A stretch of 64,000 nucleotides of DNA from Sphingomonadales bacterium (GTDB lineage Bacteria > Pseudomonadota > Alphaproteobacteria > Sphingomonadales > Sphingomonadaceae): assembly GCA_016714795.1 (NCBI GenBank), contig JADKCA010000008.1, positions 66,083 through 130,082 of the forward strand. The letters are read 5' to 3'. Below are positions 16,250 through 37,502 of the stretch, piece by piece. Each line of letters opens with the position of its first letter. The first letter of the stretch is position 1. The notes under the pieces were generated by a model that saw only the letters and a program-made list of their open reading frames with translations, searched no databases and was not told the origin of the DNA. The translations under genes were made by a program, and so were the position numbers.

Positions 16250-16424
16250 TGGTTCGCCGATATGCACTGTCCGCACCGGGCTCGCGAGCGCGCTGCGCTC
16301 GATAGGCATGACATTCAACTCAGGATGCATCCTCGATGATCTGCCGCCGCCCTTGCTGCGATGAACCATGCGGCGGTCGGGCCGGGGCACAACCGGCAAA
16401 GCAGCGGACCGGGAAGCCCTGCGG

Positions 16425-16540
16425 GCTTGCCGCACCACTCCTCGCTTTACCGGTTCCCCGCTGCTGGCGCGCGGTGTGCCGCCGTCCCTTGTCCCGCCGC
16501 TCCTCCTGTTCATCGCCGGGCAGTTCCGGCGAGTGTCAAC
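16425..16540 (+). promoter_or_regulatory. conserved non-coding element upstream of ssb (copy 1; homologous copy at 35088-35180)
   Basis: Shared blocks with the ssb-2 upstream region: GCC(C)GCACCACTCCT, GGTT(T)CCC, CGGTG, GTCC(C)T and ATCG(C/G)(C/G)GG. Confidence 0.4.
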
Positions 16541-16555: not shown

Positions 16556-16891
16556 ATGAAAAATCTGGTCATTCTCATCGGGCGCATCGCATCGACCCCG
16601 GAAACCCGCAACAATGGCAACACCAGCGTCACCAACTTTACGCTCGTGACCGACCGGCCCCGCATCGTCGACGGCAAGACGGTCAAGAACGATGCAGGCT
16701 ATACCGAGACCATCCCGGAATTTCATCGCATCACGGTCTTCAACGGCCTCGGCCAGACCGTCGCCAAGCACAAGGCCAAGGGCGATATGGTCGAGGTTCA
16801 GGGCCGCCTCCATTATTCCAAATGGACCGACAAGGACCAGATCGAACGCTACTCGGTCGAAATTATCGCCGAGGAAGTCCTCTTCCTCTAG
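16556..16891 (+). CDS. ssb: single-stranded DNA-binding protein, OB-fold only (no acidic C-terminal tip)
   Basis: 'MKNLVILIGRIASTPETR...TEFHRITVFNGLGQTVAKHKAKGDMVEVQGRLHYSKWTDKD' is the SSB OB-fold signature. AAGGAGG lies before ATG 16556. The protein ends '...EIIAEEVLFL'. Confidence 0.85.
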   Translation: MKNLVILIGRIASTPETRNNGNTSVTNFTLVTDRPRIVDGKTVKNDAGYTETIPEFHRITVFNGLGQTVAKHKAKGDMVEVQGRLHYSKWTDKDQIERYSVEIIAEEVLFL

Positions 16892-17372: not shown

Positions 17373-17545
17373 GTCAAGGACCAGCGGTCCCCCCAATTTT
17401 GCGCATCGGACCGCTTCGCTTGTCCGCACACAAAATCGGCTCCCCCACTGGCGGGCGGGGCCGCGACAGCGCGTGCCGCGCGTCGTCCCTGACGGCCTGG
17501 CACCAGCGTCCAGACGATCTCCATCTTTCATCCATCGGGGATGAG
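17373..17545 (+). promoter_or_regulatory. structured non-coding element A (ssDNA-promoter-like or 5'-UTR element)
   Basis: Homologous to 18688-18835. It has identical blocks, sequence-different but still complementary inner stems, and an outer stem (17373-17381 with 17485-17493). See findings. Confidence 0.5.
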
Positions 17546-17568
17546 AGGGTTTTCAATTGGAGGTCTAT

Positions 17569-18524
17569 ATGTCCCAGCGTTTTTCAAACTTCGCCGATCT
17601 TGCAGATCATTATGCCGAGCAGGTCGCAAGCCCTGATTATGGCACCGCGTTCATGGAGCAGACCGAGATGGCGCGCCTCTCGATTGCAGAGGAACCGACC
17701 ACAGCCGAGATGCCCGATCCGGACAAGGCGCAGGCCGCGCTTGAGATGATCATGGCAACAGTCTTCGACCTGTTCCGCGATACACGCATGGAGGATTTCT
17801 CCGCCGAGATTGGCTGGGGCATTGCCAACAGCTTCCATGTCGTGGCGAAGCGCCTTGATGACCGCGAGGATGCCGCCAGCCAGAAGCTTACGGAATTGCT
17901 CAAGACCTGGGACCCGTCGGAAGTCTATCAGACCGAAGTCGAGGATTTGACGATGACGGCGCGGAGCCTGTCCGAATGCCGCGACGCGATGGAATGCATG
18001 CGCGAACATGCCGCCCGCATCTACCATGTCGAGACCGGAAGGCCGTTCTCTCCGGTGCGCGGCTCGCGGGTTGCCTCCAAAGCTACGGCATCAATGATCG
18101 AAGCCCGAGACTATATTGCCAGTCGGCCCAACAACGCCGTGAACAATATGCGCCATCGGGGGCTGTCGTCGCCTTCTCGGGCGGGCAAACATGGGCTGAC
18201 CATGAACTGATCTGGGAGTATCTCGACTGCATCAAAGCACGGATTCCGTCGATGATCCTCGCCACCACGGCACAGAACAAGGGTGCCGATGTCATCGCGG
18301 CAAGCTGGGCTGCAAAGAATGACGTGAAGGTCGTGCTGTGCCGTCTTGACCGTGCCTTGGGCAACCGCGCGGCCTTTGTGCGCAACGACCGGATCGTTGG
18401 CTTCCGTCCGGTGGAAGCGATCGTCTGCAGCGGAACCGGTATCCAGGCCAATCTCGCAGACAAGTTGCGGACCGCAGGCGTGCCGCTTCATGTCTTGCGC
18501 GAGCGGACAGTGATGCACGGTTGA
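17569..18524 (+). CDS. DUF2493 (SLOG-like)-domain protein with long N-terminal extension; frame break near 18125-18129 as assembled
   Basis: GGAGG lies before ATG 17569. Frame 1 reads to '...IEARDYIASRP'. The -1 frame continues 'QQRREQYAPSGAVVAFSGGQTWADHELIW...AFVRNDRIV...GTGIQANLADKLRTAGVP', which is DUF2493-type. The track splits it into 17557-18210 and 17976-18524. Confidence 0.65.
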
Positions 18525-18687
18525 TCCAATCCGCCATCCGCCAATCAGGGGTGCCAGGCCTTACGGGTCTGGTGCCCCTTTTTTGCCCGTTCGCACATCC
18601 GAAGGATCGGGTGGCGGGCAGGGCACCCAAAACCCAAACACACACTCTCGCAAGAATTCCAAGGATGAAGACCGGAGCTAGCCCGCC

Positions 18688-18835
18688 TCAAGGATGCGCG
18701 GTCCCCCCAATTTTTTCCTCCTCTGCGCTAACGCTCCGTTCCAGAGAAAATCGGCACCCCCGCGCCCCGCTGTCGCGGCCTTCGGTCCTTGACCCGGACC
18801 AGCTCCGATCTTCTCTGAAGAGACCTCTTCGATTT
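18688..18835 (+). promoter_or_regulatory. structured non-coding element B (homologue of element A)
   Basis: GCGGTCCCCCCAATTTT at 18698-18714 and AAAATCGGC at 18747-18755 are identical to element A. The inner stem is CTCTG/CAGAG (18721-18725 / 18742-18746). Confidence 0.5.
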
Positions 18836-18852
18836 TCAACAAGGAGGTTATC

Positions 18853-19161
18853 ATGTCAGCACTTGCCGTTCAGACCATCGCCGTTTTCAATCAGCCCGCT
18901 TATGACGCAGCCTATCGCACGGCATCGATCCGGGCCCAGCACAGCTTCTTCGACCAGCACATCGTCGAAGACGAGGACGCCGGTTTCATCGCCATCGACG
19001 AAGGCGATTATAACGGCCTGACACAGGAGCTCATCGACCGGATCGTCCACACCATCGCAGCGCAGATGGCAGATGATTTCGACCTTCCCGACTACGCCCG
19101 AGCCTCCCATATCGCCGCCGGTATCGATCTCGATTTCGACGCCGACGACTGCCCATTCTGA
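18853..19161 (+). CDS. small, strongly acidic protein ending in an SSB-tip-like peptide (DFDADDCPF)
   Basis: AAGGAGG lies before ATG 18853. 102 aa. My count is 16 Asp + 4 Glu versus 4 Arg and 0 Lys. A terminator follows. Confidence 0.55.
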   Translation: MSALAVQTIAVFNQPAYDAAYRTASIRAQHSFFDQHIVEDEDAGFIAIDEGDYNGLTQELIDRIVHTIAAQMADDFDLPDYARASHIAAGIDLDFDADDCPF

Positions 19162-19170: not shown

Positions 19171-19207
19171 AGGGGAGGGGCCGCAAGGCTCCTTCCCCTT
19201 TTTTTAT
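19171..19207 (+). terminator. rho-independent terminator
   Basis: AAGGGGAGGGGCCGCAAGGCTCCTTCCCCTTTTTTT forms a G/C stem followed by a T-run. Confidence 0.6.
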
Positions 19208-19417
19208 GCGAACCCAAAAGCCACGGCGCGGCATCGAGCCCTGCCGTGGCTTGCTTGCCAGCAGCTTTACTGACACCATCTTTCGGTCCTGATCGCTGGC
19301 CGACGGCACCCCGGTCAATGCCCGCATCATAGCAAAATCAACTCCAAAAGTGACAAGCTACTCTGCTGGGTAATCTGAAATATGAGCAGACCCTACACTG
19401 CTAAAGCAGTTTCATGG

Positions 19418-19575
19418 CAAAAATGGCGGAAATACGTCAGTTTTGACGTTCGAAACTCCCGGCAGTTTGGGGTCTGATGAATGCTGTCTGGTCCCCAGAA
19501 ATGGCGGAATTTCGGGGACTCTGGAGGGCAGTTTTGATATAAATGCATGCCATATGGTCCCCAATCGGCTCTTGC
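19418..19575 (+). repeat. two tandem imperfect ~75-78-bp units at the 5' end of the first integrase gene (att/arm-site-like)
   Basis: AAATGGCGGAA at 19421 and 19499. CAGTTTTGA at 19438 and 19529. TGGTCCCCA at 19489 and 19555. Confidence 0.45.
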
Positions 19576-20726
19576 CCGGGAATCGGGCCTATCTTGATGG
19601 CAATCTGGTTCGCCGGAAAATGGGTGAGTCTGACCTGGATCAGGTCATCTGGGACAATGAACTGGCAGGCTTTGGTCTGCGGATCCGTCCGTCGGGCAAG
19701 CGCTATTGGTTCGTCCGTTTGCGCCAACGTGGACGGCACCGCCGTATCTCGCTGGGATGCACCGACGATGTCGAGGCACCGATCGCGCGGGGCGAGGCGC
19801 GTAGGCTGTTGGCAGAAGTTGCCCTTGACGGACTGCCCAAGCGGGTCGCGGCGAAAGTGGCTCCAGTACTCGCCGACTATGTGGATGAGTTCTGGACAGA
19901 TTGCGCACGGCACTGGAAGCCCTCAACCCAAAGGCGAAACCGGAATGCCTTGGAGAAGGAAATACTGCCAGCGTTCGGAGCCATGCGGATCGACCTGATC
20001 GGTCGGGCAGAGATCACCCGGTGGCGCGACGATTATGCCGATGGGCGCGGCTCGCGTTACAACCGCGCTGTTCCGGTTTTGGGCGCAATGTTCAAATATG
20101 CTGAGCAGCTTGGCTATATTCGCAAGAACTCCAACCCCTGCAAAGGCATGCCGGGTTTTAAACCGAACAAGAAGGAGCGCTTTCTCAGTCCGGTCGAGTT
20201 TCGCAGGCTCGCGCGTGAGCTGGATGCCGACGCGGCGTCCTATCCAGTGCATGTCGCCATTGTCCGCTTGCTGATTTTTACCGGCGCGCGGATCAGCGAA
20301 ATCCGCGACCTCCAATGGGACTGGGTGCAGTTGCCGCGCCTGGTGCTGCCTGACAGCAAGACCGGTCCCAAAACCATCTATCTCAACAGTCAGGCCGTTC
20401 GGATATTTGATGGCGTCGCCCGACACGGGGACTGCCGGTTTGTCTTCCCCAATGCAAAGCGCAATGCGCCCATCATTCTTGATCCGTGGTGGCTGCAATT
20501 CCGCCGCCGCTGCGCGATGCCCGACGTTCGCCTTCACGATCTGCGGCACAGTTTTGCATCGGTGGCAGTGCGGGAGAAGGTTCAACTCGCAACGATCGGC
20601 AGCCTTCTTGGTCATGCCTTACCCGAAACGACCGCGCGCTATGCCCACCTCGCTGATGATACTGTTGCCGAGGCTGCCCAGCGCGTTTCTGGCGGCCTTG
20701 CCGAAACACTGGGTCTGTCGGCATGA
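19554..20726 (+). CDS. tyrosine recombinase/integrase (P4-like, DUF4102-type N-domain)
   Basis: 'WDNELAGFGLRIRPSGKRYW' is the arm-binding-type N-domain. Catalytic set: 'TGARISE' (R), 'DSKTGPK' (K), 'HDLRHSF' (HxxR), 'LGH' and 'TARYAHL' (Y). The start (19554 or 19620) is uncertain. Confidence 0.85.
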   Translation: MVPNRLLPGNRAYLDGNLVRRKMGESDLDQVIWDNELAGFGLRIRPSGKRYWFVRLRQRGRHRRISLGCTDDVEAPIARGEARRLLAEVALDGLPKRVAAKVAPVLADYVDEFWTDCARHWKPSTQRRNRNALEKEILPAFGAMRIDLIGRAEITRWRDDYADGRGSRYNRAVPVLGAMFKYAEQLGYIRKNSNPCKGMPGFKPNKKERFLSPVEFRRLARELDADAASYPVHVAIVRLLIFTGARISEIRDLQWDWVQLPRLVLPDSKTGPKTIYLNSQAVRIFDGVARHGDCRFVFPNAKRNAPIILDPWWLQFRRRCAMPDVRLHDLRHSFASVAVREKVQLATIGSLLGHALPETTARYAHLADDTVAEAAQRVSGGLAETLGLSA

Positions 20727-21931
20727 CGAGCCTTTCGCTCAAACAAGTCGTTGAGAAGGCGCTGGCTGAAGTCGGTGCCAATCCGCGTATTGCGCGCAAG
20801 CCCAAGGGCAAAGCGCGCACAACCACGTGGCTCCAGGTCGAGCATGGCTTTGGCATCCGTCATTATCCAAGTGGTCGGCATGTCTATATCGTCCAGATGC
20901 GCATGGCAGGCCGTATGCGCACCGTCACCATTGGCCCAGCATCGGTTTTGACACGCCATCAGGCGATGATAGTTGCCCGGCGGGTCATTGCGCATGTGCG
21001 CGTCGGCCATGACCCGGCGACCACGCGGCAGCAAATCCGCAATGCGCCGAGCATGGACGACTTCATGGACGAGTATTGGGAGAAGTGTTCTCCCAGTTGG
21101 AAGCCATCGACGGTCGAAACGGCCACCGGCTATCGTCGCTGCCATATCGATGGGGCGTTTCCGGAGGCCTTCGTTGACAGCCTGACCGAGGCCGAGGTCA
21201 TCAAATGGTTTGTGGCGCTCACGGACAATTCCGGCCCCAGCGCTGCCAATCGCTGTTGGGAAATATTGCGCGCTGCCTTCAACAAGGCGGAGAGCTGGGG
21301 CTATCGCGTTGAAAACACCAACCCCTGCCTTGCCGTGCGTCAGAACAAGCGCATCCATCGCACGCGCTTTCTGTCGAACGACGAACTCACCCGGCTTGGA
21401 GTGGCATTGTCCGGAGCCCGAGAGAGCGAAGATCGCATGGAACAGGTCCATGCAACGGCGATTTTGCTACTGATCCTGACGGGATGCCGCATGGGTGAGA
21501 TTCTCGGGCTGCAATGGAGCGACGTCAAAGGGAACCGCCTCCTTCTGCGCGATAGCAAGACAGGGCCACGTACCGTCTGGCTAGGCGACGAGGCACGCGC
21601 GCTCGTCCAGGCGCTCCCTCGTGAGGGCAGTACTCCTTGGTTGTTTTGGAATTGGCGCTTCAAGAAGCCAATCCGCAACCTTGGCCATGTTTGGGATCGC
21701 TATCGGAACGAAGTTGGCCTCAAGAATGCCCATCTACACGATCTACGCCATACTTTTGCCAGCCATGCCGTGATGGGGAAGGAGAATCTGGCGATGGTTG
21801 GTAAGCTGCTTGGCCATGCCAAGGTGGCTTCGACTGCACGCTATGCCCATTTTGATGACGACCATCTGCTTGAAGCAGCAGAGGTCATTGGCGCAGCCAT
21901 CGAGCGGGCAATGCTGACGGGCAAACACTAA
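20723..21931 (+). CDS. tyrosine recombinase/integrase, second copy, overlapping the first by 4 nt
   Basis: 'TGCRMGE', 'DSKTGPR', 'HDLRHTF', 'LGH' and 'TARYAHF'. ATGA overlap at 20723-20726. Confidence 0.9.
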   Translation: MTSLSLKQVVEKALAEVGANPRIARKPKGKARTTTWLQVEHGFGIRHYPSGRHVYIVQMRMAGRMRTVTIGPASVLTRHQAMIVARRVIAHVRVGHDPATTRQQIRNAPSMDDFMDEYWEKCSPSWKPSTVETATGYRRCHIDGAFPEAFVDSLTEAEVIKWFVALTDNSGPSAANRCWEILRAAFNKAESWGYRVENTNPCLAVRQNKRIHRTRFLSNDELTRLGVALSGARESEDRMEQVHATAILLLILTGCRMGEILGLQWSDVKGNRLLLRDSKTGPRTVWLGDEARALVQALPREGSTPWLFWNWRFKKPIRNLGHVWDRYRNEVGLKNAHLHDLRHTFASHAVMGKENLAMVGKLLGHAKVASTARYAHFDDDHLLEAAEVIGAAIERAMLTGKH

Positions 21932-21973
21932 TCTCCATTGCAGTATCCCATGCAACATGATATCTCATAGGAT

Positions 21974-22399
21974 ATGTACAGAGTCGTTCTCGATACCGAC
22001 ATCATCGTGACGGCGCTGCGCAGTGCGACCGGTGGCAGCAATGCTGTTTTGCGTGAAGCGGCCTACGGACGGATTACGCCTTTGGTCACGCCAGCTTTGT
22101 TCCTCGAATATGAGGCGGTGCTGAAACGGCCCGAACAGCGACTTGTCCACGGACTTGGTTTGCGCGACATTGACCGCTTCCTGTCTGCTCTGGCAGCAGC
22201 CTGCGAAGCGGTCGAAGTCAGCTTCCAGTGGCGACCGCAATTGTCGGACGCCAATGACGAGATGGTTCTGGAAACAGCGGTCAACGGTCAGGCCGATGCG
22301 CTCATCACGCACAATGTGCGTGATTTTGTGAAGGGCGCGGAAAGGTTTGGGTTGCGGGTGTTGCGACCCGGCGAGTTTTTGAAGGAGTTACGGTCATGA
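21974..22399 (+). CDS. PIN-domain toxin
   Basis: 'MYRVVLDTDIIV...EMVLETAVNGQADALITHNVRDF' has PIN acidic residues in the usual positions. Confidence 0.8.
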   Translation: MYRVVLDTDIIVTALRSATGGSNAVLREAAYGRITPLVTPALFLEYEAVLKRPEQRLVHGLGLRDIDRFLSALAAACEAVEVSFQWRPQLSDANDEMVLETAVNGQADALITHNVRDFVKGAERFGLRVLRPGEFLKELRS

Positions 22400-22641
22400 G
22401 CAAAGCATCCTACCCGCTCAAACTGCCAGCCTCAGTGAAGGCTGCCGCTGCACGCCTTGCCAAGGAAGATGGCGTGTCGCTCAACCAATGGATTTCTGTG
22501 GCCATCGCGCAGAAGATCGGGGTTGTAGAGACTGCGGCTGATTTTCTCTCGCGACGGGCTGGGAAGGCCAAGGCCGCGGATATGTTGCCGTTTCTCGACA
22601 AGGCGAAGCGGGAAGCGCTGCCGGTTGGGGATGAGGTTTGA
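22396..22641 (+). CDS. small RHH/Arc-like antitoxin candidate (toxin-first order)
   Basis: ATGA overlap with the PIN gene. 'VSLNQWISVAIAQKIG' resembles the antitoxins paired with this PIN family. Confidence 0.6.
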   Translation: MSKASYPLKLPASVKAAAARLAKEDGVSLNQWISVAIAQKIGVVETAADFLSRRAGKAKAADMLPFLDKAKREALPVGDEV

Positions 22642-22856
22642 ACGTCAGGTAGTTGGGAATTCTGCTTCTCGGCGTTGCTTCGGCAAAACTGCTCATCAAG
22701 ACTGGCGATCACCCAAATAAGTGTCTGCGCAAGTTCGGAACTCGGTGACAAGCGCGGCACCACACGCTAGTCCTTGAAGATCATTCGACGCAACATTGCG
22801 TCACCCTTAAATCGCTGGTCAAACGCATCCTGCGAGGTGCAGAAAAATATCGACGA

Positions 22857-25800
22857 ATGAATGCTGTAGAAATTGAAGAAGCAGTATCGGAACTTGCAAG
22901 AAAGCCCTTTGATCGGGCCGATTTCGCGTATCAATTTCTAGCCGCCTTTGGGAACAAAGAAACCACCATAAAGCGGCTTCGCGCTGCCGGTGGCTCCAAC
23001 GCCTCAGATGTTCCTGGCGGCATACTCCAGCGTAACAACATTCACTTGGCGACATGCGCGGCGGGTGAGGTCGATGCGACGTTGAAGGCCTTGCGCGACA
23101 GTCCGAAAACAGCATCGGCCAAAGCCAAGTTCATTCTCGCCACCGATGGCGAGACGCTACAGGCGGAAGACGTCACCAGCGACGACCCGCCCATTGCGTG
23201 TGAGTATGCGAAATTCCCCGATCATTTCGGATTCTTCCTGCCGCTGGCAGGCATCACCACCGTCAAGCAAATCCGCGAAAGTTCGTTCGACATTCGCGCC
23301 ACGGGGCGGCTCAACAAGCTCTATGTCGAGCTGCTGAAAGACAATCCCGAATGGGCGACCGCCGAGCGCCGACCGGACATGAACCATTTCATGGCGCGGC
23401 TGATCTTCTGCTTTTTCGCGGAGGATACCGACATCTTCAATGGCACCGGCCTGTTCACTGCGACGACCGACCAGATGAGCGAGCGCGATTCGTCGAACAC
23501 GCACGACGTCATCAGCGAGATGTTCCGAGCGATGAACACCAAGATCGCGGATCGCGGGGATGCGAAATTACCGCGCTGGGCCGACGTGTTCCCCTATGTG
23601 AACGGCGGGCTGTTTTCAGGCAGCACCGAAGTGCCGCGCTTCAGCAAGATTGCTCGATCCTACCTGATCAATATCGGCAGCCTCGATTGGAAAAAGATCA
23701 ACCCCGACATTTTCGGCAGCATGATTCAGGCCGTTGCCGATGATGAGGAACGCGGCGCGCTGGGTATGCACTACACCAGCGTCCCAAACATCCTGAAGGT
23801 TCTGAATCCGCTGTTTCTCGATGATCTGCGCGCGCAGTTGGAGGAGGCGGGCGACAATGGGCGCAAGCTGCTCAACCTGCGTAACCGCATGGCGAAAATC
23901 CGGGTGTTCGATCCGGCCTGCGGCAGCGGCAATTTTCTTGTGATCGCATACAAGGAAATGCGCGCGATTGAGGCGGTGATCAACCAGCGCCGCAACGAGG
24001 AAGAGCGGCGCAGCGACATTCCGCTGACCAATTTTCGTGGTATCGAGCTGCGCGATTTTCCGGCTGAGATTGCGCGTCTGGCGCTCATCATCGCCGAATA
24101 TCAGTGCGACGTGACCTATCGCGGGCAGCAAGAGGCGCTGGCGGAACTGCTCCCGCTGGACGCGCAAAACTGGATCACTTGCGGCAATGCGCTGCGGCTC
24201 GACTGGCTGGGCATCTGCCCGCCGACAGGGACGGGTGTGAAAATGCAAGGCGACGATTTGTTTAACACCCCGCTTGATCAGGCTCAGATTGATTTCGAGA
24301 ATGAGGGAGGTGAGACATATATCTGTGGAAATCCTCCGTATGCGGGCTCCAACTGGCAAACTATAGATCAAAAAGAAGACTTACAAAGGTTGTTTCAGCA
24401 ACGGAAAATCAATTGGAAGCAGGTGGATTATATTTTTGGTTGGTTTTTTAAGGCGGCTGAATTTGGCACCAAAACTGAATCTTCCTCTGCCTTCGTTACC
24501 ACTAACTCAGTAAATCAAGGTCAAATTGCATCGATCATATGGCCACCTATTTTTGAAACTGGTCACGAAATCTCATTCGCCCACACGAGCTTTAAGTGGG
24601 CCAATTTAGCTAGCCACAATGCGGGCGTGACGGTTTCCATTGTTGGTATTTCACGGAATCTGACTTCTGCTCGAAAACTCTTTTCGTTAGCAGATGATGG
24701 GAGCACCCTTTTAAAGCTCGTAAATAATATAAATCCCTACCTAATTCCCGCACCAAATGTGTTTATTGAGCCTAGCGGGGAATCTCTTGGGTTCAGTGCG
24801 GAGATCACCGACGGATGTGGAGCGCTCGATGGAGGCAATCTGGTAGTTACATCTGACGAGTTGGCGGAAATGCTTACTCAAAAGCCATCAGGGATAATGG
24901 AGTTTATACGACCTTATACTGGTTCGACCGAGTTTATCAGAGGTTCTCTACGATGGTGCGTTTGGATCGCTGACGAAGATCGTGATAACGCTGCCACCTT
25001 TCCTGAAATTCAACGCAGGATCGATGCCACTTATCAGTTTAGATTGAAGGCGGGCACTCGAGCGCAAACGGCTATCAACCGGCCACATAAATTTGCATGG
25101 ATAAATCAGTCTCAGAACGAACAGATAATAGTTCCTAAACATTTTTCAGAACGGCGTGAATATGTGACGGCGGGTTATCTCACAAATGAATATATTGTGA
25201 GCAATTCTGCTACTATAGTCCACAATGCAACACTAGACATATTCTCAGTTATTTCATCGAAATTACACGTTGTTTGGGTGAAGGCCGTGGCGGGGCGGCT
25301 ACGTGAAGACATTCGTTATACACCGGCAACTTGTTACAACACATTTCCAGTCGCTCAACTGACAGAAACAGATAGGGCTAAACTAACTCGCTGCGCCGAG
25401 GACATCCTTCTCGCTCGTGAGGCTCATTTTCCCAAGACCATCGCTGAACTATACGACCCGGACGATATGCCGCAGAACCTCCGCCGCGCCCATGAAGCAA
25501 ACGACGAAGTGCTGGAACGCATCTACATCGGGCGGCGGTTCAAGAATGACACCGAGCGGCTGGAAAAGCTGTTTGAACTCTACACGAAGATGACTCAAAA
25601 TACTGGAAAGTCGTCAAAACCAAGAAAGTGGCAGCTTGACCATGACGACATCCAAACCCATCCCCGCAGTCTCATTTCAGACCGCGCGAACAGGCGCATC
25701 CGCCAAACCCAACGAAATGGGTATGCGCCAGATGCAGGAACGCGCCTATGCCAAGCGCGGCGAGCAATATCTGCTGATCAAATCGCCGCCCGCATCGGGC

Positions 25801-27767
25801 AAGTCCCGCGCGCTGATGTTCATCGCGCTCGACAAGCTCACAATCAGGATGTCAAACAAGCGATCATCGTCGTGCCTGAAAAGAGCATCGGCGGCAGCTT
25901 TGCCGATGAGCCGCTTTCAAAATTCGGCTTCTGGGCTGACTGGACGGTCAAGCCGCAATGGAATCTGTGCAACGCACCTGGCCCCGATGAAGAGCGCGTT
26001 GACCCCTCCAAGGTTCGCGCCGTGGGGCAGTTCCTCGCCAGCGATGACAAGGTGCTGGTTTGCACCCATGCGTCGTTTCGCTTCGCGGTGGAGCAACTTG
26101 GCATTGAGGCGTTCGACAATCGCCTGATCGCGGTGGACGAGTTCCACCACGTTTCCGCCAGTGCCGACAACAAGCTGGGCAGCCAGCTTGGCGATTTCAT
26201 CCACCGCGACAAGGTGCATCTTGTCGCCATGACAGGCAGCTATTTCCGGGGCGATGCCGTTCCCGTGTTGATGCCCGAGGATGAGGCGAAATTCGAGACT
26301 GTCACCTATACCTATTACGAACAGCTCAATGGCTATGAGCATCTGAAATCGCTCAACATCGGCTATTTTTTCTACACGGGTCGCTATCTGGGCGCGATTG
26401 AGGCCGTGCTTGATCCGTCGCGCAAAACCATTGTTCATATCCCTTCGGTCAATTCGCGCGAAAGCACAAAGGACAAGATCAAGGAAGTCGAAGAGATCAT
26501 GGAATATCTCGGCGATTGGAAGGGTGCCGATCCCGTCACCGGCTTCCACCTGGTCGAATTGCCCGCCGATGAAAACGGGAACGTCCGCACGATCAAGATT
26601 GCCGACCTTGTGGACGACAGCGATCAGGTGAAGCGCTCGAAGGTTCTGGCGGCTCTGAAAGACCCCGCGCACAAGAACAACCGCGACCATGTGGACATCA
26701 TCATCGCGCTCGGCATGGCGAAGGAGGGCTTTGACTGGATTTGGTGCGAACATGCGCTGACGGTCGGCTATCGCTCCAGCTTGACCGAGATCATTCAGAT
26801 CATCGGTCGTGCCACCCGCGATGCACCGGGCAAGGAAGTGGCGAGTTTCACCAATCTGATCGCGGAACCCGATGCGTCCGAAGCTGCCGTGGTCGATGCG
26901 ATCAACGATACGCTGAAAGCCATTGCGGCGAGCTTGCTCATGGAGCAGGTGCTTGCACCGCGTTTCAATTTTACCCCGAAGGATAACGGGCCGCTGCCCG
27001 ACTTCAAATATGAAGGTGGGTATCAGGAAGGGCAAACGAACGTCGGTTTCAACGAAGAACGCGGCCAGTTCCATTTCGAGATCAAGGGGCTTGTGACACC
27101 CAAGAGTCCCGAAGCAACCCGCATTTGCGCCGAAGATTTGAACGAAGTCATCACCGCGTTCGTGCAGGATAAGTCTGCTCTTGAGCGCGGTTTGTTCGAT
27201 GGTGCGCACGTTGGCGGCGAAACATTGGCGGAAGAACTGACCCAGCTCAAAATGGGCAAAATCGTGCGGGATCGTTACCCCGAATTATCGGGTGAAGATC
27301 AGGAGGCGGTGCGCCAGCACGCGGTTGCCGCGTTGAACCTGACCCAGAAGGCCAAGCAGCTTGCGGGCAGCGGCGATCCTGGAGCAGGCGACATTGATGA
27401 TGGCGAGGCGCGCTCCAATACCGCATTGATCGAGGGCGTTCGCAAATTCACGATTGAGGTGAAAGACCTCGACATTGACCTGATCGACCGGATCAATCCC
27501 TTTGAAGCGGCCTATTCCGTTCTCGCCAAGGCGATGAACGAAGGGACGTTGAAGCAGGTTGCCGCCGTGATCGGCAAGCGCAAAGTCAGCATTCCCTATG
27601 ACGAAGCCCGCGACCTGGCCGTGCGCGCTTTGCAGTGGAAAAAGGAACGCGGACGCGCGCCCGAGATCACGTCGCAAGATCCGTGGGAAAAGCGCCTTGC
27701 CGAAGGCGTTGCCGCCCTCGCGAAATTCCGCGCCCAGCAGGCAGCTCAAGAGTCTGCCAATGGTTGA
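22857..27767 (+). CDS. as-assembled 1636-codon ORF: MmeI/YeeA-type N6-adenine DNA methyltransferase (to ~25.6 kb) run together with the core of an SF2 (DExH) helicase (from ~25.84 kb)
   Basis: MTase: 'NGGLF', 'FDPACGSGNFLV' (motif I) and 'GNPPYAG' (motif IV). Helicase: 'AVDEFHH' and 'QIIGRATRD'. The helicase N-terminus with Walker A is in another frame (next feature). The true MTase 3' end is therefore uncertain, and a genuine fusion is doubtful. Confidence 0.75.
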   Translation: MNAVEIEEAVSELARKPFDRADFAYQFLAAFGNKETTIKRLRAAGGSNASDVPGGILQRNNIHLATCAAGEVDATLKALRDSPKTASAKAKFILATDGETLQAEDVTSDDPPIACEYAKFPDHFGFFLPLAGITTVKQIRESSFDIRATGRLNKLYVELLKDNPEWATAERRPDMNHFMARLIFCFFAEDTDIFNGTGLFTATTDQMSERDSSNTHDVISEMFRAMNTKIADRGDAKLPRWADVFPYVNGGLFSGSTEVPRFSKIARSYLINIGSLDWKKINPDIFGSMIQAVADDEERGALGMHYTSVPNILKVLNPLFLDDLRAQLEEAGDNGRKLLNLRNRMAKIRVFDPACGSGNFLVIAYKEMRAIEAVINQRRNEEERRSDIPLTNFRGIELRDFPAEIARLALIIAEYQCDVTYRGQQEALAELLPLDAQNWITCGNALRLDWLGICPPTGTGVKMQGDDLFNTPLDQAQIDFENEGGETYICGNPPYAGSNWQTIDQKEDLQRLFQQRKINWKQVDYIFGWFFKAAEFGTKTESSSAFVTTNSVNQGQIASIIWPPIFETGHEISFAHTSFKWANLASHNAGVTVSIVGISRNLTSARKLFSLADDGSTLLKLVNNINPYLIPAPNVFIEPSGESLGFSAEITDGCGALDGGNLVVTSDELAEMLTQKPSGIMEFIRPYTGSTEFIRGSLRWCVWIADEDRDNAATFPEIQRRIDATYQFRLKAGTRAQTAINRPHKFAWINQSQNEQIIVPKHFSERREYVTAGYLTNEYIVSNSATIVHNATLDIFSVISSKLHVVWVKAVAGRLREDIRYTPATCYNTFPVAQLTETDRAKLTRCAEDILLAREAHFPKTIAELYDPDDMPQNLRRAHEANDEVLERIYIGRRFKNDTERLEKLFELYTKMTQNTGKSSKPRKWQLDHDDIQTHPRSLISDRANRRIRQTQRNGYAPDAGTRLCQARRAISADQIAARIGQVPRADVHRARQAHNQDVKQAIIVVPEKSIGGSFADEPLSKFGFWADWTVKPQWNLCNAPGPDEERVDPSKVRAVGQFLASDDKVLVCTHASFRFAVEQLGIEAFDNRLIAVDEFHHVSASADNKLGSQLGDFIHRDKVHLVAMTGSYFRGDAVPVLMPEDEAKFETVTYTYYEQLNGYEHLKSLNIGYFFYTGRYLGAIEAVLDPSRKTIVHIPSVNSRESTKDKIKEVEEIMEYLGDWKGADPVTGFHLVELPADENGNVRTIKIADLVDDSDQVKRSKVLAALKDPAHKNNRDHVDIIIALGMAKEGFDWIWCEHALTVGYRSSLTEIIQIIGRATRDAPGKEVASFTNLIAEPDASEAAVVDAINDTLKAIAASLLMEQVLAPRFNFTPKDNGPLPDFKYEGGYQEGQTNVGFNEERGQFHFEIKGLVTPKSPEATRICAEDLNEVITAFVQDKSALERGLFDGAHVGGETLAEELTQLKMGKIVRDRYPELSGEDQEAVRQHAVAALNLTQKAKQLAGSGDPGAGDIDDGEARSNTALIEGVRKFTIEVKDLDIDLIDRINPFEAAYSVLAKAMNEGTLKQVAAVIGKRKVSIPYDEARDLAVRALQWKKERGRAPEITSQDPWEKRLAEGVAALAKFRAQQAAQESANG
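25642..25843 (+). CDS. helicase N-terminal segment encoded in the +1-offset frame (Walker A 'SPPASGKS')
   Basis: Track ORF 25636-26127 reads 'MTTSKP...MRQMQERAYAKRGEQYLLIKSPPASGKSRALMFIALDKL'. It then loses sense exactly where the long ORF frame gains helicase sense ('HNQDVKQAIIVVPEKSIGG'). A one-nucleotide gap at about 25839 (CTC-CAC read as CTCAC) would join them. Confidence 0.7.
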
Positions 27768-28974
27768 TCTGTCGGACGACGAATTGCTCGCAGAACTCGG
27801 CGTTAGCGTCGAGCAAAAGGCTGCACGCGCCTATACGCCGCAGCAGGAGCGGATCATCGCGGGCTTTGAGGACATTCTCAAATTCCACGATGAGCATGGC
27901 CGCGCGCCGCAGCACGGTGAGCAGCGCGACATATTCGAGCGGCTTTATGCAGTGAGGCTCGATCGCCTGCGTGAGCTGGAGGATTGCCGTTCGCTTTTGG
28001 CAGGCTTGGACAAGCACGGTTTGCTTGAGGCGAATACGGATGCCAGCCACATCGTTCCCGATGCGCTGGATGATGATGCGTTGCTTGCTGAACTAGGCAT
28101 TGATCCTGGCGGCGATGATGACATCACGCAGCTTCGCCATGTGCAAACACGCGAGGAACGGCAGGCCGCCGAAGAGATCGCCAACCGCGAACGCTGCATT
28201 GATTTTGCGAAATTTCAGCCGCTGTTTGCCGATGTGCAGCTCGAACTTGATTCCGGCGTTCGTAGCACCCGCCCTTTCGTAAAGGACGCCGGATTTCTGA
28301 AAGCCGACATCGGCGCGGGCCAATTTTTCATCCTGGGCGGTCAGACAGCCTATGTGGCTGAGGTTGGCGAGACCATTAAGGCCCCAAATGGCGAGTTCGA
28401 CGCTCGCTTAAGGGTCATCTATTCCAATGGGACGGAGAGCAACCTGTTGCGCCGCTCCCTGCAACGCGCGCTTTACAAGGATGATGCAGGGCGGCGCATT
28501 ACCGATCCAGCGGCGGGGCCGCTTTTCTCTGACAATGCGGACGAAGACGACACCGAAAGCGGGACGATCTATGTCTTGCGGAGCAAGTCCGACCATCCCC
28601 AGATCGCCCAGCACCGTGACCTGATCCACAAGATCGGCGTGACGGGTGGCAGTGTCACGACGCGCATTGCGGCAGCGGAGAACGATGCAACCTACCTGCT
28701 GGCCGGCGTCGAGATCATCGCCGAATACAAGCTGTTCAACATCAACCGGACGAAGTTGGAAAGGCTGATCCACCGATTTTTCGCTGACGCCGCATACGAC
28801 ATCCAAATTACTGATCGCTTCGGTAAGCCCGTCCGGCCCCGTGAATGGTTTCTCGTGCCGCTCCATGTGATCGACGAGGCTGTTCAGCGGATACGAGACG
28901 GCACGATTACGGAGTGCCGATACGATGCCAAGGCTGCTCGCTTGGTGCATACCTCCTTGGGAAAATTGTCATGA
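27760..28974 (+). CDS. GIY-YIG / T5orf172-type nuclease-domain protein
   Basis: ATG 27760 overlaps the helicase stop (ATGGTTGA). The C-terminal domain reads 'GTIYVLRS...IHKIGVTGGSVTTRI...NRTKLERLIHRFF...REWF'. Confidence 0.8.
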   Translation: MVDLSDDELLAELGVSVEQKAARAYTPQQERIIAGFEDILKFHDEHGRAPQHGEQRDIFERLYAVRLDRLRELEDCRSLLAGLDKHGLLEANTDASHIVPDALDDDALLAELGIDPGGDDDITQLRHVQTREERQAAEEIANRERCIDFAKFQPLFADVQLELDSGVRSTRPFVKDAGFLKADIGAGQFFILGGQTAYVAEVGETIKAPNGEFDARLRVIYSNGTESNLLRRSLQRALYKDDAGRRITDPAAGPLFSDNADEDDTESGTIYVLRSKSDHPQIAQHRDLIHKIGVTGGSVTTRIAAAENDATYLLAGVEIIAEYKLFNINRTKLERLIHRFFADAAYDIQITDRFGKPVRPREWFLVPLHVIDEAVQRIRDGTITECRYDAKAARLVHTSLGKLS

Positions 28975-30977
28975 GCAACGTCAATGTCCGTCGTTTGGTC
29001 GAGAATATCCGTTCTGGCACCAATATCTACACGCCCATTGTCGAACTGGTGGTAAATGCCATTCAGGCGATTGACGAGAAAAAGATCGCGAAGTTTGGAT
29101 TGGTCGAAATCGAGACCGTGCGTGATGGCCAATCTGACATGGTGGACAAGCTCGAATCTGTCGACGGCTTCAACGTCATCGACAACGGTATTGGCTTCAA
29201 CCGTACGCACCGAGACTCATTTGACACGCTCTATACCGAGCAAAAAATTGGCGATGGCGGCAAAGGATTCGGTCGCTTCACCTGCCTCAAATATTTTAGC
29301 AAGGTTGAGGTTAGCAGCGTATTTGAAGAAGGCGACGAATGCTTCCAGCGGTCCTTCAAAATGGGACTGGATAAGGAAATAATAGTAGCAGAGGCGATTG
29401 AGACCATCGAGCGGATCGGCACCGGCTCATTGGTCAAAATCTCAGAAATCAAATCGGTGAAATTCCCGGACAAAGGCCTTGAGATCATTGCTCGTGTCAT
29501 TGTCGAAAAGCTGCTGCCCTATTTTGTTGAAAGGGATGAGGCTAAAAAGTGCCCCCGCATCGTAATTCGGGAGGCTAAGAAGCCTGACACCAATATCGTG
29601 CTCAATGACTATCTGGGCAAAGCGGACAGCCAGATCGTTGAGATGCCTGTTGCCAACGGCAAATTTTCACTGTCCTCGCCCGATGGCCCCAAGGAATTCG
29701 AGGTCCGCGTTTTCAAATTCTACTCACCGCGGGAAAGCAAAAGCAAAATCAGTCTGGTTGCACATCGGCGTGAGGTGACGGAAACGACGCTGCAAACATA
29801 CATCCCGGAATTTGCTGAAGAGTTTTACGAGCCTGTGCCCGAAGGTCGGGACCGCAATTTTCTGATTAAGGCCTATGTGTTCGGCGATTACCTCAATGAT
29901 AACGTTTCGTTGGAAAGAGGCGAATTCCGCTTTCAGACCGAAAGCGATTTGTCGGGCGGGATCGCGCAAAAAGACATCGAATACAAAGCCGCCGAAATCG
30001 CCCAAGCCGCAGTAGGATCGGAGATCGCTGCACGCAAAGAGCGAAAGCAGCAGACCATCGAACAATACGTCGCTACGGAAGCGCCTTGGCATCGTTTGAC
30101 GATAACCCAAGCCGACCTGAGCGACCTACCTTATAAGCCTACTAAGCCACAAATCGAAGCGCATCTCCAAGCCAAGAAATTTGAGACCGAACTGCAAACT
30201 CGCACCCAGGTTGCGGCGCTTTTGGCGGACGATAGCCACGCCGACCTAAACGGTAAGGTCGAGGAACTGGTCAAACGGATTTCAGAAACTAGCAAGAGCG
30301 ACCTCATCCATTATGTCTCCATGCGGAAATGCGTGCTCGATATCTTCGAAAAATCCCTCGAACGGGACGAGCAAGGAAAATACAAATCCGAGGGTGAGGT
30401 ACACGACATTATCATGCAGCGGAAAAAGGATTCGGACGAGATCGATTGGGAGACCCACAATCTTTGGATGCTAGATGAACGCTTGAACTTTGCTGCCTAC
30501 GTCTCTTCCGAAAAGCCTATTAACGCGGGCAATGGAAGCCGCACTGACATCACCATTTTCGATAAGCGAGTTGCATTTCGTGGTGAGAATGAGGCGAGCA
30601 ACCCGATCACCATTTTCGAATTCAAAAAGCCGTCAAGAGATGACTTTGCCAATCCTTCATCCAAAGAAGATCCCGTCCAACAGATCATTCGATACGTGAA
30701 CCAAATCCGCGACGGTAATTTCAAAACCCCCAAGGGCCGCGAGATTCTGGTAAACGAAAACACCCCCTTTTACGGCTATGTCGTGTGTGAGCTGACGCAA
30801 AAGGTGAAGACTTGGCTGGATCGTGAAAAGAATTTCACGCCAATGCCTGACGGGCTGGGCTGGTTCACCTGGTATCCAAATAACCGCCTCTACATGGAGG
30901 TTTTGAGCTGGGATAAAATTTTGAAAGACGCTGAGATGCGCAACAAAGTTTTTTTCAACAAACTTGGACTTGAGTAA
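28971..30977 (+). CDS. GHKL (Hsp90/MutL/MORC-like) ATPase with C-terminal PD-(D/E)xK-like domain
   Basis: ATGA overlap with the upstream gene. 'ELVVNAIQA', 'DNGIGF' and 'GDGGKGFGRF'. The C-terminal part has 'RTDITIFD...ITIFEFKKP'. Visibly AT-richer than its neighbours. Confidence 0.75.
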   Translation: MSNVNVRRLVENIRSGTNIYTPIVELVVNAIQAIDEKKIAKFGLVEIETVRDGQSDMVDKLESVDGFNVIDNGIGFNRTHRDSFDTLYTEQKIGDGGKGFGRFTCLKYFSKVEVSSVFEEGDECFQRSFKMGLDKEIIVAEAIETIERIGTGSLVKISEIKSVKFPDKGLEIIARVIVEKLLPYFVERDEAKKCPRIVIREAKKPDTNIVLNDYLGKADSQIVEMPVANGKFSLSSPDGPKEFEVRVFKFYSPRESKSKISLVAHRREVTETTLQTYIPEFAEEFYEPVPEGRDRNFLIKAYVFGDYLNDNVSLERGEFRFQTESDLSGGIAQKDIEYKAAEIAQAAVGSEIAARKERKQQTIEQYVATEAPWHRLTITQADLSDLPYKPTKPQIEAHLQAKKFETELQTRTQVAALLADDSHADLNGKVEELVKRISETSKSDLIHYVSMRKCVLDIFEKSLERDEQGKYKSEGEVHDIIMQRKKDSDEIDWETHNLWMLDERLNFAAYVSSEKPINAGNGSRTDITIFDKRVAFRGENEASNPITIFEFKKPSRDDFANPSSKEDPVQQIIRYVNQIRDGNFKTPKGREILVNENTPFYGYVVCELTQKVKTWLDREKNFTPMPDGLGWFTWYPNNRLYMEVLSWDKILKDAEMRNKVFFNKLGLE

Positions 30978-31257
30978 CTTTCGGGCGCTGCCTTTGGCGG
31001 TCCGCACTATTCGCTTAGCAGACCAAGCCCCTTATCCTGCCGCCCACGCGACGCGTTGGCCCGGGCGATGGCGAAAACAGATCTGGCGATACCGATAGCC
31101 ACCTGACGGACCAGGTTCTACTGGACGATCTCCGCAATAAGGGCCAGCTTCTTTGGTGGCATGATCGCCCAGCGACGAAAATCGAACAGAGGATATGACA
31201 GTGTCAGAAGAGGCGGCCGTTCGCCTGCGCTCAGCGGATCGCACCGCCCCTCCATGA

Positions 31258-33288: not shown

Positions 33289-34456
33289 CTGTTCCTTGCG
33301 CCCATAAAAGCCCGGCCCCTCGGCCGGTTCGGTGCTGTACGGGTTCCAGAACTTCCAGTTTCGACCAATCCACGTCTGAACGCTGGGCGAGCATCCGAAC
33401 GCCGAATATCTCCTCCTTGCCTTTAACTTCTCCCGCTTCGCGCCAGCGGACCTCTACGTCGAAGTCGATCGCATCGCAGGACGTTGCCACAATGACGTCC
33501 ACGGCAGCTCCGAATTCCCCGGGAGCTATCTCGCCCAATATCTGCTCTTGATCGTCGACAAGCACCGACGGGTCGGAGCACGATACGCGATACACCACAT
33601 CCATTGCGGGGCCCGGACCTTCGTTGCGGAAAGGTATTACCACCCGTAGCTCGCGTTCCGCCTCGTGGAGCGGATACCGTTTCTGCAGCGCCAAGCTTTC
33701 ACGCTCGGCACGGACCACACGTGCCGCGAGCCGCCCCTTCATAGCACCAAGGAAGACGTTCAGAGCCTGCTCGGCATTCTCGAGCAAGCCACGCAGCGCA
33801 CTCGTCAGGAAGGATGGTCGACGATCCGCCAGCTCCGCCCCTCTTGCGATCTCCTGACGCGAGGCCTCGAGATCAGATTCGAAGCCGGCATCCATCTGAA
33901 GCACACGAGCGAGCGAAGAGGTGAGGTGGTCGATAACCTCCGCGACCTCGCCGACATGCCACGGCCTGCAGTAGGTGCGCACCTGAGAATGTTGCAGGGC
34001 ACCGGTCAGCCGACCCTTCGCACCTACGAGCGTATTCAGGCTGGCATAGGGCGTGCCGAGCGGCTCTAGTATCTTCGTTATACTGCTATGCGCGCCCCGG
34101 AGTTGCTCGAGCTTCTCGTAGTTCTGAGTCTTCGGCTGCACCCCGACGAACTGACATAGCTTCGGCAGGGCAGCCTCGCATAAAGATACGACGCTACGAG
34201 CCAACGCGTCCTGCCGTCCGTCAGAGAATACCCCGGCCTCGAGCGCGCGAAGAACCACGGCCGCAGCAAGATCGCGTCCGGCGGGAGCTTGGGAGACCGC
34301 GATCACTGCATCGGCAGTCGACCCCTCGACGGGAACATCCGCCGTGCTGAACAGGTAACGACGCAACGCGAGCCGTGCCCCGTCAAAATCCTGCGCTGCG
34401 ATCGCGACCTCAAATGCAGTAAGATGGTCTTCGAGAAGACTGGAGCTTTCGTTCAT
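33161..34456 (-). CDS. N-terminal region ORF of the ATPase-PRTase gene (helical part + beta-rich segment); frame break near 33341-33343 as assembled
   Basis: ATG 34456 with GAGG upstream. It makes sense up to '...DVDWSKLEVLE', then becomes Gly/Arg nonsense where the ATPase frame gains sense. The break lies at a C-run (GGG on the plus strand). Confidence 0.6.
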   Translation of the reverse strand: MNESSSLLEDHLTAFEVAIAAQDFDGARLALRRYLFSTADVPVEGSTADAVIAVSQAPAGRDLAAAVVLRALEAGVFSDGRQDALARSVVSLCEAALPKLCQFVGVQPKTQNYEKLEQLRGAHSSITKILEPLGTPYASLNTLVGAKGRLTGALQHSQVRTYCRPWHVGEVAEVIDHLTSSLARVLQMDAGFESDLEASRQEIARGAELADRRPSFLTSALRGLLENAEQALNVFLGAMKGRLAARVVRAERESLALQKRYPLHEAERELRVVIPFRNEGPGPAMDVVYRVSCSDPSVLVDDQEQILGEIAPGEFGAAVDVIVATSCDAIDFDVEVRWREAGEVKGKEEIFGVRMLAQRSDVDWSKLEVLEPVQHRTGRGAGLLWAQGTGGDAGRAVSSTSDGAILRHGPEESRQDVPRADGNGRGARRGP

Positions 34457-34871
34457 GTATTCCCGCCTCAGGACCTGATACTGTTTCTAAGCTCTAGCGT
34501 TATGTTGCTTAGACTAGCAACACCCTGATTGGCAGGTGGGTCTTTTGTCCTCGACGGCTGGCTAAGAGATATTCGCCTTTAGAGCCCGGCCGCTTGAAAA
34601 CCGCTGCCCTGCTGCCAACATCCGTTTGGCTGAGGCGGCTGCTACCAAACGAGCGGAGGGCAAACGGCCGACCTTGCTTTCGCCGCACGCCCTTCGAACG
34701 GCCGCTGCATCGGAAACCCGCCATTCACGGTCGCGTCAGTGAACGACGGCTTCGTCCCACTCCCGGTCATTCTTGTTCGCTTGCCGCTTCATGATCCGCT
34801 GGAAGGGGCGCGGATGATGACGGGCTCGTAAGGTGATTGCTGGGTGAACTACGCTCAAAGGAGAAAGGCAC

Positions 34872-35015
34872 ATGAAGCCGCCCAAGACCCTGCAAGGTTT
34901 TGGTGTCAGGCCAGCAAAGGGTGCCAAGCCACGACGTTGGCGAAGTGAGTGCATTCAGAGGCCGATTAAAACAAAGCCGTCACCGCCCAAGAAAACATCC
35001 CCTTTCATGAACTGA
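34872..35015 (+). CDS. possible small basic ORF (47 codons)
   Basis: AAGGAGAAAGG lies 4 nt before ATG 34872 ('MKPPKTLQGFGVRPAKGAKPRRW...'). Not in the track because it is under 60 aa. There is no other support. Confidence 0.2.
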   Translation: MKPPKTLQGFGVRPAKGAKPRRWRSECIQRPIKTKPSPPKKTSPFMN

Positions 35016-35087
35016 TCCAAGCCCCTGACCGGACCCGGCCAGGTCTGCAACCCGCGCTCATGCGGACCGTGTTGCTGCGCTTCGCGC

Positions 35088-35180: not shown

Positions 35181-35224
35181 ATGGTCCCTTGGACGGTTTG
35201 AAACAGCTTCGAAAGGTCAATCTC

Positions 35225-35593: not shown

Positions 35594-35624
35594 CGCCGCC
35601 TCGGTTCATCCGAACCTGAAAATC

Positions 35625-37496: not shown

Positions 37497-37502
37497 CCGT
37501 GC

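Follow-up and report, generated by a model that had tools for sequence, protein, structure and literature searches.

The 64,000-nucleotide stretch of contig JADKCA010000008.1 analyzed here (hereafter the window), from the genome assembly of a Sphingomonadales bacterium (GCA_016714795.1), contains a gene for a very acidic protein of 102 amino acids, the C-terminus of which resembles the acidic tip of SSB, the bacterial protein that binds to single-stranded DNA. This tip is a hub that guides more than 12 bacterial replication, repair, and recombination enzymes to single-stranded DNA (ssDNA), and it docks chi, RecO, PriA, RecQ, RecJ, and ExoI, among others. The explanation that we favor, tentatively, is that the acidic protein is an early-acting mimic of this tip and would fill the SSB-tip pockets of host enzymes. 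In the literature searched, no natural free-standing SSB-tip mimic is described.

The protein ends in ...GIDLDFDADDCPF (translation of the open reading frame, ORF, at 18853–19161), with Asp at positions −4, −5, −7, −9, and −11 and with Phe as the last residue before the stop codon. The chromosomal SSB of the host (contig C6) ends in ...FDSDLDDDVPF, such that the tip LDDDVPF compares with FDADDCPF in the acidic protein. Among the 26,222 six-frame ORFs of at least 50 amino acids in the host genome, 45 end in Pro-Phe, and three combine this ending with at least three Asp or Glu residues in the six preceding positions, namely the SSB, the acidic-protein gene, and a paralogue of the latter on contig C11. 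When a crude position-specific scoring matrix (PSSM) derived from six chromosomal SSB tips was applied to all of these ORF ends, the acidic protein ranked second with a score of 8.6 (mean −21.9, standard deviation 4.4), behind the SSB alone. A resemblance to the acidic tip of bacterial SSBs, proposed in a preliminary description of the window, is borne out by both results, and the likeness appears from these sequence comparisons to exceed chance. As in the SSB of Escherichia coli (...DFDDDIPF), the peptide occupies the extreme C-terminus, ends in Pro-Phe, and has acidic residues before position −3. The residue at −3 is likewise small and hydrophobic, although it is Cys where SSBs have Ile or Val; the one at −7/−8 is aromatic or hydrophobic; and the peptide sits on a poorly conserved tether that is predicted to be disordered. 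Unlike the SSB tip, this tail is attached to a predicted alpha/beta core, with no oligonucleotide-binding (OB) fold.

Relatives of the acidic protein were found by several searches. A word-indexed search gave 65 clusters among 66 candidates; an exhaustive phmmer search gave 72 representatives at E ≤ 1e-3, and 338 relatives were confirmed in species-representative genomes. The locus counts given below (n = 80) refer to the best 80 of these 338 relatives, almost all of which are from Sphingomonadales. Viral contigs gave 35 pattern matches, none of which was confirmed as a relative. In PLSDB, the gene is present on 74 plasmids (49 typed as conjugative), including those of Novosphingobium sp. KA1 and Rhizorhabdus wittichii RW1, and is annotated everywhere as 'hypothetical protein'. 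The plasmid pNL1 also carries the gene, and nothing on this ORF was found in the pNL1 literature searched.

The C-termini of 134 family proteins (one match of 2306 amino acids was left out) may be divided into several classes. Fifty-nine have acidic-x-P-[FY] ends, and 26 have [DE][DE][FYWL] ends; the latter are short forms of about 70–80 amino acids that stop with ...G.M.DEF or ...DEY at query position 76. Other acidic-aromatic ends account for six proteins, and another seven have few acidic residues and an aromatic end, of the ...G[LVE]Y type or otherwise. Many of the remaining 36 look, by eye, like truncated or frameshifted metagenome fragments. In the long forms (about 103 amino acids), the former short-form end is kept as an internal MADDFD motif and is followed by about 26 residues with a new acidic Pro-Phe end. 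The tail of this subfamily has the form [FW]-D-A-D-(D)-C-P-F, with WDADCPF in most relatives, and other types of extension finish in EVPY, EVPF, ELPY, or AIPF.

All 62 long-form genes encode Pro at −2 and Phe at the end, using four codons for the former and two for the latter without altering either amino acid. At position −3, 60 of these genes encode Cys and two encode Val, whereas SSBs have Ile or Val there. When long forms of the window type were compared with those of the Novosphingobium type (11 × 21 pairs), the core was 66% identical and MADDFD 92%, whereas the linker reached only 22% and the final four residues 95%. This pattern indicates that the tail is under selection while being carried on a fast-evolving linker. 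The tail is thus conserved in homologues, so that the first refuting condition of the preliminary description does not apply: 59 of the 134 proteins have acidic-x-P-[FY] ends, and every long-form gene in the loci (62/62) ends in Pro-Phe. Because about a quarter of the family consists of such short forms with DEF/DEY ends, the interpretation as an SSB tip is strong only for the subfamily of about 103 amino acids.

The composition reported in the preliminary description (16 Asp and four Glu against four Arg, with no Lys) was reproduced exactly, and corresponds to a computed isoelectric point (pI) of 4.05 and a net charge of about −16. The GC content at the three codon positions (0.66/0.38/0.72) is typical for genuine genes in the window. 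The family core extends from about residue 10 to 76 and contains the invariant motifs HSFFDQH, DEG.Y (here DEGDY), and IDR (here IDRIVH). In the AlphaFold2 model, the core consists of a helix (14–29), two strands (35–40 and 44–49), a short helix, and a strand (64–68), with a predicted local distance difference test score (pLDDT) of about 80. This topology of helix, beta-hairpin, helix, and strand was found in the models of both the whole protein and the core. A short-form protein, which represents the core alone, was modeled with an identical topology (pLDDT 84.9, predicted template modeling score 0.71). Residues 71–102 have a pLDDT of 54–66 and are predicted to be a flexible tether.

The acidic protein has no match in Pfam, NCBIfam, PHROGs, or PADLOC, including PF00436, PsiB, and ArdA (the latter two of which we take to be PF06290 and PF07275, respectively). 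Structure searches likewise gave no convincing relative. The best Foldseek match of the whole model in the PDB has E = 1, and the VIA wide fold search gave at best Z = 4.9 at a root-mean-square deviation of 6.3 Å for the whole model. For the core model, the best VIA wide match was a phage portal sub-domain at Z = 6.1, compared with the tool's stated bar of about 8, and the best match among the viral structures of BFVD was an uncharacterized protein at E = 0.043. Among known DNA mimics, the best rows were those of p56, at only E = 3. A search of the ESM Atlas returned just the cluster of the acidic protein itself and leads below 0.9, and the h217 query gave nothing. By these comparisons, the acidic protein is not an SSB, a PsiB, an ArdA, or a member of any named family.

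A second line of evidence comes from the SSB genes of these elements. The preliminary description held that both SSBs encoded in the window lack the tip, and both ends were confirmed, SSB-1 stopping at ...EIIAEEVLFL and SSB-2 (35225–35593) ending in ...KDEPKKRRTK. However, SSB-2 is located in an inserted island of about 24.6 kb and is not part of the module of the acidic protein. An SSB gene is present within the 6-kb upstream flank in 27 of the 80 loci, and none of the 27 has a canonical tip; these proteins end in ...EEVLFL, ...RVEFY, or a short ...DAPEID / ...DIDE tail. In five more genomes, which have no SSB gene in that flank, an SSB-1-like gene occurs 6.7–9 kb upstream on the same strand, and all five products end in ...EEVLFL. 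The chromosomal SSBs of the same five genomes all end in ...DD[DE][IV]PF, and one of these genomes has two SSB genes elsewhere that keep their tips (...DDDIPY and ...DDEIPF). The pairing with tip-less SSBs thus holds across the family (32/32 linked SSBs), indicating that tip loss is a property of the plasmid backbone. A distance of only about 0.67 kb lies between the end of the SSB gene and the acidic-protein start downstream of it in short-form elements. In long-form elements, the two genes are separate transcription units 2–9 kb apart. A second related element was observed in the host genome (C11:3900–6420), with a tip-less SSB, a hairpin, a DUF2493-like region, another hairpin, and the paralogue in this order. 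This paralogue has 75% identity to the acidic protein and ends in ...DFDAEDCPF.

The structured upstream element and the terminator noted in the preliminary description were both found, at 18665–18813 and 19172–19197, respectively. For the upstream hairpin, the − strand gives a more stable fold (free energy, dG, of −46 with z −4.15) than does the + strand (dG of −35.2 with z −2.76), and the − strand fold is favored in 78 of 79 loci (means −59.6 vs. −48.9 kcal/mol). An alignment of 21 diverse loci contains invariant blocks and has compensatory changes in 22 of the 45 predicted pairs. In this alignment, 95.9% of the cells are paired, compared with 80.6% in shuffles (none of 500 reached the observed value) and 34–53% when the partners were slid; the covariation score of 0.398 exceeds the 0.133 obtained with shuffles and the maximum of 0.098 obtained with slid partners. 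The pair table contains, by our count, 55 G.U cells versus three A.C cells, which indicates that the structure is selected on the − strand. The gene-distal arm, in the non-template role, has an A-tract, a −35-like box (TTGAGG, 18691 to 18686), a spacer of 18 nt, and a −10-like box (CATCCT, 18667 to 18662). Across loci the arrangement is TTGA(C/G)G, 18 nt, and CAT(N)CT, with conservation of 90% or more for the TTGA of the −35 box and for A2 and T6 of the −10 box. The weak −10 box (CATNCT) is situated at the stem's open base. Given the order of these boxes on the distal arm, RNA polymerase would run into the acidic-protein gene. By nhmmer, two equivalent copies of the hairpin were found on C11, and at least one copy is present in all 80 loci. 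An Rfam search of positions 14000–20000 gave chance-level rows only, with no family match for the hairpin.

These features agree with the description of Frpo promoters in PMC11541004. The Frpo/ssi sequences of F, ColIb-P9, and related plasmids (Masai and Arai, 1997, cited in PMC11541004) are transferred-strand hairpins that rebuild −35 and −10 boxes, have an A/T-rich stretch upstream, and lie directly 5' of leading-region genes while pointing at them, a layout to which the hairpin described here would correspond. Unlike the enterobacterial Frpo, the hairpin described here belongs to an alphaproteobacterial host and has a weak −10 box, and the likeness is one of structure and layout. From the side on which the relaxase lies, we infer that the − strand is the transferred strand. 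By analogy with Frpo, the hairpin is a candidate single-strand promoter that probably drives the acidic-protein gene early. The simple promoter scan used on the window is blind to ssDNA promoters. Alternatively, the hairpin region may give rise to an antisense RNA. The region directly upstream of SSB-1 also contains a strong template-strand hairpin, which belongs to another sequence family. Within the first 20 kb, no other template-strand structure is as stable as this hairpin (dG −53.2, vs. −46.5 on the + strand), and the wider stretch 16320–16558 folds at z −4.23. It may represent a second type of single-strand promoter.

The position of the acidic-protein gene is consistent with entry at an early stage of transfer. 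Homologues of the type IV coupling protein (T4CP) and the TrwC relaxase of the window are encoded downstream in the same orientation, and the T4CP gene starts within 2 kb in 65 of the 80 loci, or 65 of the 73 with enough flank. Among the other 15 loci, seven have too little flank, six have a tandem integrase pair, and two have something else. The gap to the T4CP gene is 642–1607 nt long (median 1056). In pNL1, the order is tip-less SSB, MucR, an insertion, DUF2493, acidic protein, a gap of about 800 nt, a ribbon-helix-helix (RHH) gene, T4CP, and MobF. Neither the window nor the host genome shows detectable similarity to the pNL1 segment from the acidic protein to the T4CP (including the RHH gene), so that homology gave no location for the origin of transfer (oriT); about 495 nt of the equivalent segment in L007 are also unmatched in the window. 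As in R388 and F, oriT would be expected in this gap, with the acidic-protein side as the leading side. As the last gene before the expected oriT gap, the acidic-protein gene would enter the recipient first. Placement in a leading region with early action, as the preliminary description had it, is in keeping with this synteny with the T4CP and relaxase genes and with the Frpo-like template-strand hairpin. The positions of all features are listed in Table 1.

Table 1. Features of the acidic-protein locus, with positions counted within the window
Feature	Position	Strand	Remark
Strong template-strand hairpin of another sequence family	16341..16500	-	Upstream of SSB-1
SSB-1; OB fold only, no linker, no acidic tip	16556..16891	+	Complete PF00436
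Second copy of the hairpin family	17373..17493	-	Found by nhmmer; upstream of h217/YAcAr
Gene with unknown N-terminal domain and YAcAr (SLOG; 'DUF2493' in the pNL1 annotation)	17557..18524	+	Upstream neighbor of the acidic-protein gene
Terminator-like hairpin after the YAcAr gene	18547..18579	+	Separates two transcription units
Conserved imperfect hairpin of ~150 nt, Frpo-like candidate single-strand promoter	18665..18813	-	Folds on the template strand
Shine-Dalgarno sequence AAGGAGG	18841..18847	+	5 nt 5' of the acidic-protein ATG
Acidic-protein gene, 102 amino acids	18853..19161	+	Core ~10-71; MADDFD 72-77; linker 78-93; tail 94-102
Codons of the last nine residues, D-F-D-A-D-D-C-P-F	19132..19158	+	SSB-tip look-alike
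Intrinsic-terminator-like hairpin and T-run	19172..19197	+	3' of the acidic-protein gene
Inserted island, ~24.6 kb	19255..43880 (approximate)	.	Separates the acidic-protein gene from T4CP and relaxase
T4CP (TrwB-like) and TrwC/MOBF relaxase	43932..49553	+	Start 0.64-1.6 kb downstream of the acidic-protein gene in relatives

For the genes around the locus, several further observations were made. Homology between the window and its nearest relative stops at about 19254 and resumes at about 43881, indicating that the island was inserted between these positions. Its cargo includes a tandem tyrosine-integrase pair, PIN/HicB, PRTase-CE, SSB-2, an SbcCD-like pair, and PDC-S06, as well as an MmeI-like type IIG restriction-modification enzyme of 1636 amino acids that is fused to a helicase-like C-terminal half. 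The AAA_13/PDC-S06 defense candidate is split between two overlapping ORFs (40366–40701 and 40647–42671), which cover positions 2–94 and 128–713 of the Pfam profile and are probably frameshifted. Because the integrase pair recurs at the identical spot in six distant loci (L071, L072, L075, L076, L082, and L085), these patterns suggest a site-specific insertion hotspot beside the expected oriT gap. Upstream, the DUF2493/YAcAr gene precedes the acidic-protein gene in 63 of the 80 loci. It is one ORF of 322–364 amino acids in relatives, and an ORF of 418 amino acids covers both of its parts in L075. In the window, the gene is represented by two overlapping frames (17557–18210 and 17976–18524), owing to a frameshift or a sequencing error. 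Positions 1–15700 hold a long run of establishment-type genes that are oriented like the acidic-protein gene, as expected for a leading region. This run includes genes for ArdC (3081–3983), a MazF-like toxin, DUF6927, DUF6880, DUF3768, DUF5983, two Xre-RES pairs, and DUF736. Two other ORFs look truncated, namely the MucR-like ORF at 15938–16249 (profile positions 55–88 of 123) and the DUF1173 ORF at 50676–51395 (profile positions 1–171 of 386).

The T4CPs of these elements have a conserved acidic tail of the form ...DDG[MP]E[MLI], and the T4CP of the window (43932–46583) ends in ...FEPDDELDL. By analogy with TraD and TraM, this tail may serve to dock a relaxosome protein. Mimicry of the T4CP tail by the acidic protein was considered and found no support, given that the T4CP tails have aliphatic ends and do not track the tail of the acidic protein. 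In the table of T4CP tails (61 rows), about half are, by our reading, out-of-frame read-throughs, and none of the rest end in Pro-Phe.

Taken together, the favored explanation would be as follows. The acidic protein would be an establishment protein of MOBF conjugative plasmids in Sphingomonadales, the gene of which ancestrally lay nearest to the expected oriT gap on the leading side. The transferred-strand hairpin would rebuild double-stranded −35 and −10 boxes, allowing the gene to be transcribed from the incoming single strand in an Frpo-like manner. The product would have three parts, namely an alpha-beta-beta-(alpha)-beta core, a flexible linker, and an acidic tail (D-x-D-(D)-C-P-F-COOH) that copies the SSB tip. 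This tail would dock in the SSB-tip pockets of host genome-maintenance proteins in competition with the host SSB, and the tip-less SSB of the element would coat the incoming strand alongside this decoy. As a result, SSB-dependent host processing, such as RecO-mediated RecA loading with the SOS response, nucleases, and helicases, would be kept off the plasmid until it is double-stranded. Within this scheme, we infer the early transcription from ssDNA, the docking in the pockets, and an effect of inhibition rather than recruitment. The host genome (3.71 Mb, 99.2% complete) has genes for chi, RecO, and PriA; it yielded no ExoI C-domain. Such a decoy would parallel PsiB in function; PsiB and PsiA were not found among the 54 window ORFs that were scanned against Pfam. 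A broader formulation of the mechanism, which we consider doubtful, is that of a split SSB, in which a tip-less OB protein coats the strand and a separate, first-entering protein, driven by a single-strand promoter, shows the tip and thereby jams or re-routes the host SSB interactome (RecO, PriA, chi, and others) during establishment. Mimicry of a hub peptide would then silence the SOS response and ssDNA processing independently of PsiB.

Several points weigh against the acidic protein as an SSB-tip mimic. Its PSSM score is far below that of the host SSB itself (32.6), and the C11 paralogue (rank 9) and the common WDADCPF form score just 1.5–2.5. Cys at −3 and Ala at −5/−6 depart from the canonical Ile/Val and from one Asp of the SSB tip. 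The short-form ends score −12 and are not SSB-like. Because these forms lack Pro-Phe, the ancestral function of the C-terminus may go beyond SSB-tip mimicry and be something more general. The conserved polar motifs of the core are unexplained by a model in which the tail alone acts as a decoy, and such a decoy would need to out-compete the abundant host SSB. The oriT should lie in the gap beside the T4CP gene, with the acidic-protein gene the first to enter, but its position is assigned by analogy. Finally, contigs of relatives from the RNA libraries of two metatranscriptome runs (X16 and X17) span the region corresponding to 18322–19240, which is a weak hint that the gene is expressed; however, RNA-library contigs do not prove transcription.

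The main rival to a decoy is an adaptor, in which the core binds the tip-less SSB and supplies the tip in trans, so that the plasmid strand coated by SSB-1 could still recruit chi, primase, or PriA for synthesis of the complementary strand, with the plasmid itself in control. This possibility is consistent with the absence of the tip from all 32 linked SSBs, with the closeness of the SSB gene in short-form elements, and with the conserved polar surface of the core, which could be an SSB-binding site. In addition, SSB-1 and the acidic-protein gene both have template-strand hairpins upstream, so both could be made early. Nevertheless, the two genes are separate transcription units at some distance in the long-form elements, and common ancestry of the backbone accounts for the co-occurrence with SSB equally well. 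We regard an adaptor as unlikely. Somewhat less likely still is docking of the acidic-aromatic C-terminus on one of the element's own proteins instead of on host SSB partners, with the ssDNA groove of the tip-less SSB, the DUF2493/SLOG protein, or a component of the relaxosome or T4CP as candidates. The acidic tail of F TraD docks on TraM and provides an analogue, and a Pfam scan of the window lists a family by the name of 'TraM recognition site of TraD and TraG'. The gene adjoins the expected oriT gap and the T4CP gene, it is downstream of the DUF2493 gene in most loci (63/80), the short forms end in DEF/DEY without Pro, and T4CPs are also acidic-tailed. On the other hand, the tail of the long forms is specifically SSB-like.

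Two other explanations leave the likeness to SSB without a role, and both seem improbable to a similar degree. In one of these, the acidic protein is a general DNA-mimic protein for anti-restriction or anti-defense, of the ArdA/Ocr kind, which acts by its negative surface and for which the tail is incidental. The strong negative charge over 102 amino acids and low pI fit such a role, as does a location in the leading region together with ArdC, toxin-antitoxin, and further establishment genes. However, there is neither a match in Pfam, PHROGs, or PADLOC nor a convincing fold match to known mimics, and conservation is focused in the tip and the polar loops instead of the charge pattern. In the other, the likeness is fortuitous and the protein has an unrelated role, for instance as a small metal-binding or regulatory protein with a C-terminus that is kept for folding or stability. 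The invariant His, Asp, and Glu of the core could indeed form a metal site or an active site. Yet the tail is highly specific within the host genome and predicted to be disordered, the tip is conserved while the linker is variable, and different extensions recur with acidic-x-P-[FY] ends.

Likenesses to known systems are found in several groups of proteins, and each of these differs from the acidic protein in some respect. Phage T7 gp2.5 and gp4 and F TraD have acidic, Phe-terminated docking tails, which are the nearest analogue of the ...DEF ends of the short forms in being acidic with an aromatic C-terminus. These tails sit on the DNA-binding protein or motor itself, whereas the tail described here is on a separate small protein. 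ArdA, Ocr, and the uracil-DNA glycosylase inhibitors Ugi and p56 are likewise small, very acidic, early-acting proteins of mobile elements. Unlike these proteins, to which there is no family match or convincing fold match, the acidic protein has a terminal peptide as its conserved feature. PsiB of F-like plasmids is described, in part in PMC11541004, as an Frpo-driven anti-SOS protein of the leading region that binds RecA. The acidic protein is similar in being a small leading-region protein that appears to be made from the strand as it enters and that would, by prediction, dampen the processing of ssDNA by the host. Unlike PsiB, with which it shares no sequence or family relationship, its proposed targets are the SSB-tip pockets rather than RecA.

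If true, a plasmid-encoded, free-standing mimic of the SSB tip would represent an anti-host establishment factor of a new kind. Such a mimic would also explain the tip-less SSBs on these plasmids. The hairpin, with its covariation support, would extend Frpo-type promoters, so far known mainly from enterobacterial plasmids, to Alphaproteobacteria. Given that the family is present on well-studied catabolic megaplasmids (pNL1 and the plasmids of KA1 and RW1), these ideas are directly testable.

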